A DNA stretch of 32,000 nucleotides, from positions 357,240-389,239 of the forward strand of contig NZ_CP144210.1 in NCBI RefSeq assembly GCF_045689905.1, given 5' to 3'. Numbering within the stretch: position 1 is the stretch's first letter; each line of letters opens with the position of its first letter. This document shows, piece after piece, positions 31,319 through 32,000 of this stretch. The DNA is from Pengzhenrongella phosphoraccumulans (GTDB lineage: Bacteria; Actinomycetota; Actinomycetes; Actinomycetales; Cellulomonadaceae). Below the pieces are notes generated by a model, which was not told where the DNA came from, ran no database searches, and saw nothing but the letters and a program-made list of their open reading frames with translations. Both the position numbers and the translations under genes were made by a program.

Positions 31319-31651
31319 TCAGGCGAGAGAGAGGAAGAGCTTCTCGAGCTTCTGCACGTGCAACGTCTCACTCCCGTCAGCCTCGATCAAGCACTGCCGC
31401 ATGCCCGTGGCGATGATGGCGAATCCCGCGCGGTCGAGCGCGCGGCTGACGGCGGACAGCTGGGTGACGATGTCCTCGCAGTCGCGGCCGGCCTCGAGCA
31501 TGCGCAGGACGCCCGCCAGCTGGCCCTGCGCGCGCTTGAGCCGGTTGATGACCTTGCCCATCTCGTCCGGGTCCAGCTCCATCGGCGCGCCCTGGTCCTC
31601 GCCCGCGATCCAGGACACCCCGGGCGACAGCTCATCCCCTCCGGTCGCCAT
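31319..31651 (-). CDS. CsoR/RcnR-family repressor with C-x-C fingerprint lacking the Cu-ligand His (CstR-like)
   Basis: [55 protein letters not shown]. The two Cys are 29 residues apart, as in CsoR/CstR. The position 4 residues before the second Cys is Gly rather than His. An alternative start is ATG 31582 (MELDPDEMG). Confidence 0.82.
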
Positions 31652-31660
31652 GACGACGTC

Positions 31661-32000
31661 TCAGGACACGGACTGGCGGGCGGCGTCCTGCGCGGCGATC
31701 TGGGCGCGGACGTCGTCCATGTCCAGGCCCTTGACCCCGCTGATGACCTGCTCGAGCGCGACAGCGGGCAGCGCACCGGGCTGGGAGAACACGAGCACGT
31801 TCTCGCGGAACACCATCAGTGTCGGGATCGACGTGATGCCGGCCTGGCCGGCCAGGACCTGCTCGGCCTCGGTGTCGACCTTGCCGAACACGATGTCCGC
31901 GTGCTCCTCGGACGCCTTGTCGAAGATGGGCGCGAACTGGCGGCACGGGCCGCACCACGCGGCCCAGAAGTCGACCAGGACGATGTCGTTGCCCCGGATC
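31661..32000 (-). CDS. thioredoxin (5' end beyond window)
   Basis: The minus-strand translation from the window edge reads IRGNDIVLVDFWAAWCGPCRQFAPIFDK...GITSIPTLMVF. The WCGPC active site is present, and the stop is at 31661. Confidence 0.85.
   Translation of the reverse strand, partial: IRGNDIVLVDFWAAWCGPCRQFAPIFDKASEEHADIVFGKVDTEAEQVLAGQAGITSIPTLMVFRENVLVFSQPGALPAVALEQVISGVKGLDMDDVRAQIAAQDAARQSVS

Follow-up and report, generated by a model that had tools for sequence, protein, structure and literature searches.

At the end of a 32,000-nucleotide stretch of the Pengzhenrongella phosphoraccumulans genome (C1:357240-389239; hereafter the window, meaning the whole stretch that was analysed), four minus-strand genes follow one another closely: a thioredoxin gene (trx), a gene for a CsoR-family repressor that we call cstR, a gene for an S-adenosylmethionine (SAM)-dependent methyltransferase, and a gene for a 323-aa membrane protein with a CxxC motif (Table 1). 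The genome consists of one contig of 4.96 Mb with 70.8 % GC. The repressor protein, whose closest named relatives come from Cellulomonas, Georgenia and Pengzhenrongella, is the subject of this analysis, together with its pairing with trx. An earlier reading of this DNA, made from the sequence alone (the sequence-only reading), placed the repressor start 9 nt after trx, or 78 nt after it if a second ATG is used. The coordinates agree: 9 nt (31652-31660) separate the trx stop codon (31663-31661) from ATG 31651, and the gap widens to 78 nt when counted from ATG 31582. Our data give good support to the view that the repressor belongs to the CstR-type sensors of reactive sulfur rather than to the copper sensors of its family, and show that the trx-cstR pair recurs in related loci.

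Table 1. Features of the window, in window coordinates (sensor residues in the numbering of the 110-aa form of the repressor)
Feature	Position	Strand	Remarks
CstR-like CsoR-family repressor gene (cstR)	31319..31651	-	110 aa; ATG 31651-31649, stop TGA 31321-31319
Conserved 87-aa core of the repressor	31319-31582	-	alternative ATG 31582-31580 (Met24, MELDP)
Sensor residues of the repressor	C58 31480-31478; G83 31405-31403; C87 31393-31391	-	
23-codon stretch between the two candidate starts	31583..31651	-	GC content at third codon positions (GC3) 0.91; predicted local distance difference test (pLDDT) <50 for residues 1-18
Thioredoxin gene (trx), first of the predicted operon	31661..32000	-	PF00085, 1.8e-25; extends 41 nt past the window end
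SAM-dependent methyltransferase gene (TehB/TPMT-like), third	30698..31306	-	Methyltransf_25, TehB and TPMT matches
323-aa protein gene, fourth	29758..30729	-	overlaps the methyltransferase end
Predicted operator ATACCCCCCGGGGTAT	26547..26562	.	perfect; precedes rhodanese / CoADR-rhodanese genes; chance expectation 0.07 per window
Predicted operator ATACCCCACGGGGTAC	24107..24122	.	one mismatch
DsrE-like gene	25901-26413		confirmed in the window

The repressor scores 83.9 bits (E = 1e-23) with the CsoR/RcnR superfamily profile (Pfam PF02583), well over its gathering threshold of 22.8 bits. Its AlphaFold2 (AF2) model comprises helices at residues 32-53, 58-92 and 97-109 behind a disordered segment of residues 1-18 (mean pLDDT 78.7), and ranks 1-22 of a Foldseek search with this model are all occupied by CsoR-family structures (CsoR, CstR, InrS and FrmR). 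An ungapped phmmer alignment with Mycobacterium tuberculosis CsoR (PDB 2hh7) pairs residues 34-91 of the repressor with chain residues 12-69, so that C58, G83 and C87 take the places of residues 36, 61 and 65, the Cu(I) ligands Cys36, His61 and Cys65. The two cysteines lie in the segments GRDCEDIV and GMRQCL, with G83 four residues ahead of C87. The sequence-only reading had put them 29 residues apart, in register with Cys36 and Cys65 of the M. tuberculosis protein, and had proposed Gly at the His61 position with no His nearby; both points are borne out by the alignment. G83 also stands opposite the His of Geobacillus CsoR (4m1p) and of InrS (5fmn), and in this genome's canonical CsoRs it is the His of EEHMSHC that aligns with the Gly of ATGMRQC. 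The sole His of the repressor, H98, belongs to helix 3, at a position where most homologs have Asp; the repressor sequence contains no His or Cys N-terminal of C58. Both cysteines (C35 and C64 in the numbering of the 87-aa form) are invariant in alignments of 13 and 24 homologs, and the glycine (G60) is nearly so, with a single Ser.

A sensor of formaldehyde (FrmR-like) or of nickel/cobalt (RcnR/InrS-like) would account for NCBIfam matches to FrmR and RcnR, yet at 30.8 and 18.4 bits these are weak and far under the curated cut-offs of 133 and 138 bits, as is the RicR match (37.4 against 175 bits). Taking Pro2 as the mark of FrmR and an H-C-H-H set as that of RcnR, we find Glu at residue 2 (MELDP) and no His at the W or Y position of the fingerprint, which makes such a sensor barely credible. 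The resemblance to CstR extends beyond the cysteines. In Streptococcus pneumoniae CstR (7MQ1) the counterparts of C58 and C87 are C30 and C59, and R56-D57-C58-E59-D60 matches the R28-D-C30-x-D32 motif of that protein, in which an R28-D32 ion pair frames the attacking C30 (Fakhoury et al. 2021, PMC8643695). Among solved structures 7MQ1 is also the best single-sequence match (1.8e-12); though the entry is labelled csoR, it is S. pneumoniae CstR and the first CstR structure (Fakhoury et al. 2021, PMC8643695).

The genome itself separates the two kinds of sensor. It holds six PF02583 genes, three canonical (C-H-C) and three of the Gly type. The canonical CsoRs carry the pattern YC...HxxHC and adjoin genes for a GMTCxxC chaperone (CopZ) and a CPC/DKTGT P-type ATPase; the Tyr ahead of their first Cys is Asp in the repressor. 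The Gly-type paralogs are the gene described here (E), one at 4.866 Mb (D) and one at 0.399 Mb (F). They occupy two sulfur islands, which contain genes for DsrE-like, rhodanese, CoA-disulfide-reductase (CoADR)-rhodanese, SQR-like flavoprotein, TusA, TauE and YgaP-like membrane proteins, and no copper gene was found in the neighbourhoods of the three paralogs. Likewise, sulfide/persulfide detoxification genes adjoin cstR in most of 80 related loci. S. aureus CstR binds Cu(I) in vitro, and the repressor retains both Cu(I)-binding cysteines of CsoR, as a copper(I) sensor using the two cysteines alone would. Against such a sensor stand the Gly in place of the His ligand, the Asp in place of Tyr, the lack of copper genes near any Gly-type paralog, and the three complete C-H-C CsoRs that accompany the copper ATPase and chaperone genes elsewhere in the genome; we consider it highly improbable.

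The predicted operators follow the same division. The palindrome ATACC-N6-GGTAT occurs about 13 times in the genome, nearly all of the copies lying in the sulfur islands beside sulfur genes (383786, 389316, 392997, 398812 and other positions). Besides the copies in the window, the sequence-only reading had suggested a third palindrome upstream of trx, beyond the window end. It is present as ATACCCTAGGGGGTAT at genome 389316-389331 (L001:2578-2593), 35 nt upstream of the trx ATG and 77 nt past the window end, although chance alone would give no such site; the trx gene that goes with paralog D is preceded by an identical one. The perfect site inside the window, ATACCCCCCGGGGTAT, is predicted to belong to the same regulon as ATACCCTAGGGGGTAT, and nearly all other operators of the genome precede sulfur-transfer or sulfide-oxidation genes. 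A variant with one more spacer base, ATACC-N7-GGTAT, is found near the canonical CsoR genes (genome 54753, 70186, 205913 and 4464603), directly upstream of the CsoR at 4.46 Mb and ~3 kb from the other two. Predicted operator spacing thus divides with sensor type, N7 with copper and N6 with sulfur. Together, the Gly at the ligand position, the separate three-member copper set, the sulfur-gene neighbourhoods and the operator make the assignment to a CstR-type (x-C-x-C) member of the CsoR family, in place of a copper sensor, well supported by sequence and context, as the sequence-only reading had argued.

Among characterised proteins, the closest tested relative is ScCsoR (SCO0620) of Streptomyces coelicolor, which has Cys37 and Cys66, binds ATACCn6GGTAT in electrophoretic mobility shift assays and leaves this DNA when polysulfide is present (Lu et al. 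2020, PMC7533328). ScCsoR and Rv1766 fall within cluster 3 of a sequence similarity network (SSN) of the CsoR family. This cluster gathers 3,175 actinomycete proteins, for the most part uncharacterised, which are candidate persulfide sensors by their x-C-x-C fingerprint and sulfur-detoxification neighbours (Fakhoury et al. 2021, PMC8643695). By taxon, fingerprint and operator form, the repressor fits the published description of cluster 3; it is placed there by these described features alone. The comparison with ScCsoR, likewise made by description and not by sequence, extends to the actinomycete host, the spacing of the cysteines (29 residues; C37/C66 there, C35/C64 in the 87-aa form here), the missing His ligand, the ATACC-N6-GGTAT operator form and, as predicted for the repressor here, autoregulation and a regulon for sulfane-sulfur removal with rhodanese and TauE. 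The two systems differ in layout. ScCsoR is transcribed alone and controls a persulfide dioxygenase circuit, whereas here the repressor is the second gene behind trx, three paralogs share one operator type, and the predicted regulon consists of CoA-persulfide-reductase/rhodanese, DsrE/TusA and SQR-like genes (persulfide dioxygenase was not searched for). The x-C-x-C fingerprint and the R-D-C-x-D motif are also shared with the CstRs of S. pneumoniae, Enterococcus faecalis and Staphylococcus aureus (SSN clusters 10 and 4; PDB 7MQ1-7MQ3), and the predicted control of CoA-persulfide-reductase and rhodanese genes with that of E. faecalis. A literature search found no description of a thioredoxin partner for these three CstRs. 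A further difference concerns the 'wedge' residue at the copper-His position, where S. pneumoniae CstR has Asn55 and the repressor Gly. With the N55A substitution that protein loses its asymmetry, and the formation of tri- and tetrasulfide links is no longer kinetically blocked (Fakhoury et al. 2021, PMC8643695). By analogy, Gly at the wedge position would therefore predict a symmetric, readily cross-linked sensor.

We consider it likely that the repressor senses reactive sulfur species (persulfide/polysulfide) as a CstR-type protein of the actinomycete branch represented by ScCsoR, that it represses its own trx operon and sulfur genes, and that trx probably re-reduces it. In the mechanism that we propose, the reduced tetramer would bind the 16-bp ATACC-N6-GGTAT operators, including the one 35 nt upstream of trx, and so repress its own four-gene operon of trx, cstR, methyltransferase and CxxC membrane protein genes. 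Acting alongside its two paralogs, it may also shut about a dozen sulfur-handling promoters, those of rhodanese, CoA-persulfide reductase, DsrE/TusA carrier and SQR-like genes. Sulfane sulfur would modify C58, which would then either carry a persulfide or be linked to C87 of the adjacent protomer through a di- to tetrasulfide bridge, and the modified repressor would release DNA. The co-produced thioredoxin, inducible and distinct from the housekeeping enzyme, would most likely reduce persulfides on proteins and small molecules, and probably also the repressor itself, closing a negative feedback loop.

At full length the thioredoxin has 126 aa and a WCGPC active site, and it exceeds the TIGR01068 cut-off (100.2 against 96.8 bits). 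The housekeeping trxB-trxA pair lies at 2.004 Mb, and the cstR-linked trx is a distinct paralog. The genome has three copies of this 124-126-aa type with a C-terminal tail, two of them preceding cstR genes and one beside a gene for a Bcp-like peroxiredoxin; the latter (genome 3447958-3448332) has no CstR operator. The two cstR-linked copies (window 31661-32000 and L014:8726-9106) are 94 % identical with a synonymous divergence (dS) of 0.13 and an almost identical core, and their cstR partners are 82 % identical with a dS of 0.74 and a dN/dS of ~0.12. The gap between a trx dS of 0.13 and a cstR dS of 0.74 suggests that two old units have exchanged sequence by gene conversion in trx alone.

Beyond this genome, linkage was scored in the 80 related loci as a trx within 700 nt upstream of cstR on the same strand. 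It is present in 38 of them, spanning Micrococcales and Propionibacteriales, and the junction is tight in several lineages (3-44 nt, or an ATG 3-5 codons past the trx stop). In a tree of 83 cores, which has poor resolution (3 starred branches), the two trx-cstR pairs of this genome separate: E groups with the trx-linked locus of Pengzhenrongella frigida (L015) and D with another trx-linked locus (L022). The tree is too weakly resolved for gains of trx linkage to be counted. Our literature search, whose coverage was incomplete, found no description of trx-cstR operons in actinomycetes, and the main text of the CstR family paper (PMC8643695) does not contain the word 'thioredoxin'. The trx-cstR coupling is thus real, recurrent and, as far as this search showed, undescribed for the CsoR family.

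A functional precedent for a resetting thioredoxin lies in another family. In Rhodobacter capsulatus, SqrR regulates TrxC, and TrxC in turn reduces the polysulfide link of this repressor, after which repression resumes (Shimizu et al. 2023, PMC10044876). As there, a persulfide-sensing repressor would here control a second, non-housekeeping WCGPC thioredoxin, the control being read from operator position. SqrR, however, is of the ArsR family and its trxC is located elsewhere on the chromosome, whereas here the gene of a CsoR-family sensor is adjacent to trx and possibly translationally coupled to it. By this analogy, a thioredoxin that serves as dedicated reset of the repressor is plausible.

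Several observations weigh against the proposal of a sulfur sensor reset by its own thioredoxin. With the 13-homolog family profile, the copper sensor 6ahx (named CsoRGz in the Foldseek output) ranks first among PDB matches, just above S. pneumoniae CstR, so that sequence similarity taken by itself cannot tell a CstR from a CsoR. For the closest tested relative, Lu et al. saw only persulfidation of Cys37 and no Cys-Cys bridge, and proposed reset via newly made repressor (PMC7533328). In 42 of the 80 related loci there is no linked trx by our measure, and many of these follow CoADR-rhodanese and rhodanese genes; an alternative common layout is operator, CoADR-rhodanese, rhodanese, cstR. In many Nocardioides loci a DUF302 gene intervenes between trx and cstR (operator-trx-DUF302-cstR, e.g. 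L035:5591-6001). Finally, homologs of the CxxC membrane protein occur in 10 of the 38 trx-linked loci and in none of the 42 others.

These observations suit an alternative in which the repressor is a CstR-type sensor as proposed and trx serves other clients, such as the CxxC membrane protein, DUF302, rhodaneses or persulfidated proteins, while fresh repressor from the autoregulated operon provides the reset, as in the ScCsoR model of de novo synthesis. Its co-occurrence only with trx, its conserved LGC(T/S)PCA and its terminal Cys together make the CxxC membrane protein a rival trx client, and the DUF302 genes point the same way. Moreover, since the repressor is typically a late gene of an operator-led operon in which trx is one of several lead genes, a role of trx as regulon effector is favoured. 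Pulling in the other direction are the tight trx-cstR junction preserved in several lineages, the retention of both old units in this genome, and the reset of SqrR by TrxC; the two roles are also compatible with each other. We regard thioredoxin action on other clients, with reset by synthesis, as a real possibility, though one that falls short of an even chance. Judged from gene order, the recurrent linkage seems to fit an effector role and neither proves nor excludes the specific reset role within our preferred scheme.

A second signal may converge on the same promoter. Upstream of both trx copies, the element GGAAT-N17-GTT directly abuts the operator (genome ~389332-389356, L001:2594-2618; L014 ~9151-9175), and in Nocardioides the operator lies inside the promoter spacer (GGAATACC...GGTAT-N5/6-GTT). 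The SigR/SigH consensus is GGAAT-N18-GTT, and the SigR-RsrA and SigH-RshA pairs control thioredoxin genes in actinomycetes. Across the 80 loci, overlap with the element is seen at 14 of the 27 operators close to trx and at 0 of the 75 others. This apparent association of trx-proximal operators with an extracytoplasmic function (ECF)-like promoter is new here. A genome-wide count of GGAAT-N17/18-GTT showed no enrichment (35 found against 58 expected); the case for an ECF promoter therefore comes from the association with trx-proximal operators and from conservation. Like the SigR-RsrA and SigH-RshA systems, the locus combines a trx promoter of this form with a sigma factor carrying a zinc-binding anti-sigma-type domain next door; unlike them, a CstR-type operator abuts or sits inside the promoter, and the sigma factor is a generic ECF protein with a fused zf-HC2 domain. 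These data suggest dual control of trx-cstR by an ECF promoter and a CstR operator.

The same promoter could be taken to indicate a general sensor of thiol oxidation, disulfide stress or electrophiles that, together with the ECF sigma factor, turns on a spare thioredoxin. Consistent with this, the SigH/SigR-type-looking element abuts the trx operators, the ECF sigma gene with its zinc-finger anti-sigma domain is divergent at both trx-cstR loci, and an aldehyde dehydrogenase gene stands behind two operators at the second of them; in vitro, S. pneumoniae CstR reacts with H2O2, glutathione disulfide and tetrathionate (Fakhoury et al. 2021, PMC8643695). The remaining operators, almost all of which precede sulfur genes, and the response of ScCsoR to polysulfide (PMC7533328) speak for sulfur instead, and we judge a general oxidation sensor unlikely. 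In a bolder version of dual control, trx-cstR would be a module in which sensor and reductase are coupled in translation and kept under two locks. Thiol oxidation would open the first, the ECF (SigH/SigR-like) promoter, and sulfane sulfur the second, the overlaid CstR operator, such that trx would be made only with both signals and would then re-activate its own repressor. The three paralogs, with one operator type and differing mainly around the helix 2-helix 3 loop beside the resolving Cys, would respond at different thresholds or assemble into mixed tetramers. We offer this as a speculative model, with a rather small chance of being right in full. Divergent from trx at both trx-cstR loci (L013:492-1514 and L014:9546-10331) are genes for a YgaP-like membrane protein and for the ECF sigma factor with its fused zf-HC2 anti-sigma domain, and a CAGGGATACCGGC...GCATCAC motif is common to both divergent regions. 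The score of the neighbouring sigma factor, 60 bits against a cut-off of 251, does not support its assignment as SigH.

CstR-type sensors set when bacteria switch on their defences against hydrogen sulfide and persulfides, and actinomycete cluster 3, with >3,000 sequences, has one tested member. The locus offers a clean case for this group, through the copper-versus-sulfur split of six paralogs, the one-base difference in operator spacing and the recurrent sensor-thioredoxin unit. If trx does reset the repressor, the CsoR family would share a feedback that has been demonstrated to date only with the ArsR-type SqrR, and this feedback would explain how such switches are turned off; an ECF-type promoter under the operator would join the classical thiol-oxidation response to sulfur sensing. 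The kind of system is unchanged, and the family has already been described at cluster level (Fakhoury et al. 2021; Lu et al. 2020), so that the gain is incremental; the less ordinary trait is that the sensor would be made together with its own thioredoxin.

How closely the two genes are joined depends on the repressor start, for which we give ATG 31651 and ATG 31582 roughly even odds; the junction with trx is tight in both cases. The shorter, 87-aa form is that of most database gene calls, this genome's own included. Relatives that have their own operator and a GGAGG 6-10 nt ahead of MELDP begin at MELDP, as does paralog F, and DNA similarity between the paralogs ends at Met24. For the 110-aa form, the internal operator and ribosome-binding site are decayed in the trx-linked Cellulomonas-type loci, and in 6 of 7 such loci the frame is open back to a start 3-5 codons past the trx stop, over a stretch with a GC3 of 0.78-0.91 against 0.63 in intergenic DNA. 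In L015 and L022, as well as several database proteins, Ile replaces Met24, and both loci have an ATG 3-5 codons past the trx stop. The intervening 23 codons may encode a disordered tail at the N terminus, or they may be what is left of an internal operator and ribosome-binding region. An N-terminal GVSW..GE..G pattern was considered as a trx-specific protein tail and rejected; it is not claimed as a protein feature because its DNA is largely a relic of the right half of an operator, GGGGTATCC, and of a GAGG ribosome-binding site.

Downstream of cstR, the methyltransferase gene begins 12 nt past the repressor stop. No more than 5 of the 80 related loci have a homolog downstream of cstR; sulfide or thiols are possible substrates of the enzyme. 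Neither Pfam nor NCBIfam gave a match for the 323-aa protein. The C-terminal part of this protein is a conserved membrane domain of three helices that bears an invariant LGC(T/S)PCA, and its chain has a Cys at the C terminus. Between the operon genes we found neither promoter-like nor terminator-like sites, and a scan of the 4-kb locus for sigma-70-type promoters was empty. From the shared strand, the short gaps and the lack of such sites between the genes, we infer that trx, cstR, the methyltransferase gene and the CxxC membrane protein gene are co-transcribed. P. frigida (L015) has the same gene order, followed by genes for Dps, Fur, CoADR-rhodanese, rhodanese and DsrE.

Two further observations concern the neighbourhoods of the other Gly-type paralogs. 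Directly behind paralog F and an operator is an 877-aa CoADR-rhodanese-TusA-DsrE fusion (L013:7180-9813, minus strand), which amounts to a CoA-persulfide reductase and a CstA-like sulfur relay in a single chain. Downstream of cstR-D (L014:7151-8254, minus strand) lie an operator (8235-8250) and a small Cys-rich open reading frame (CxxxxCxxC...WSGCG.H...CxC), and the nearby copy of the CxxC membrane protein gene is split over the overlapping frames 7641-8195 and 7151-7990, probably by a frameshift.

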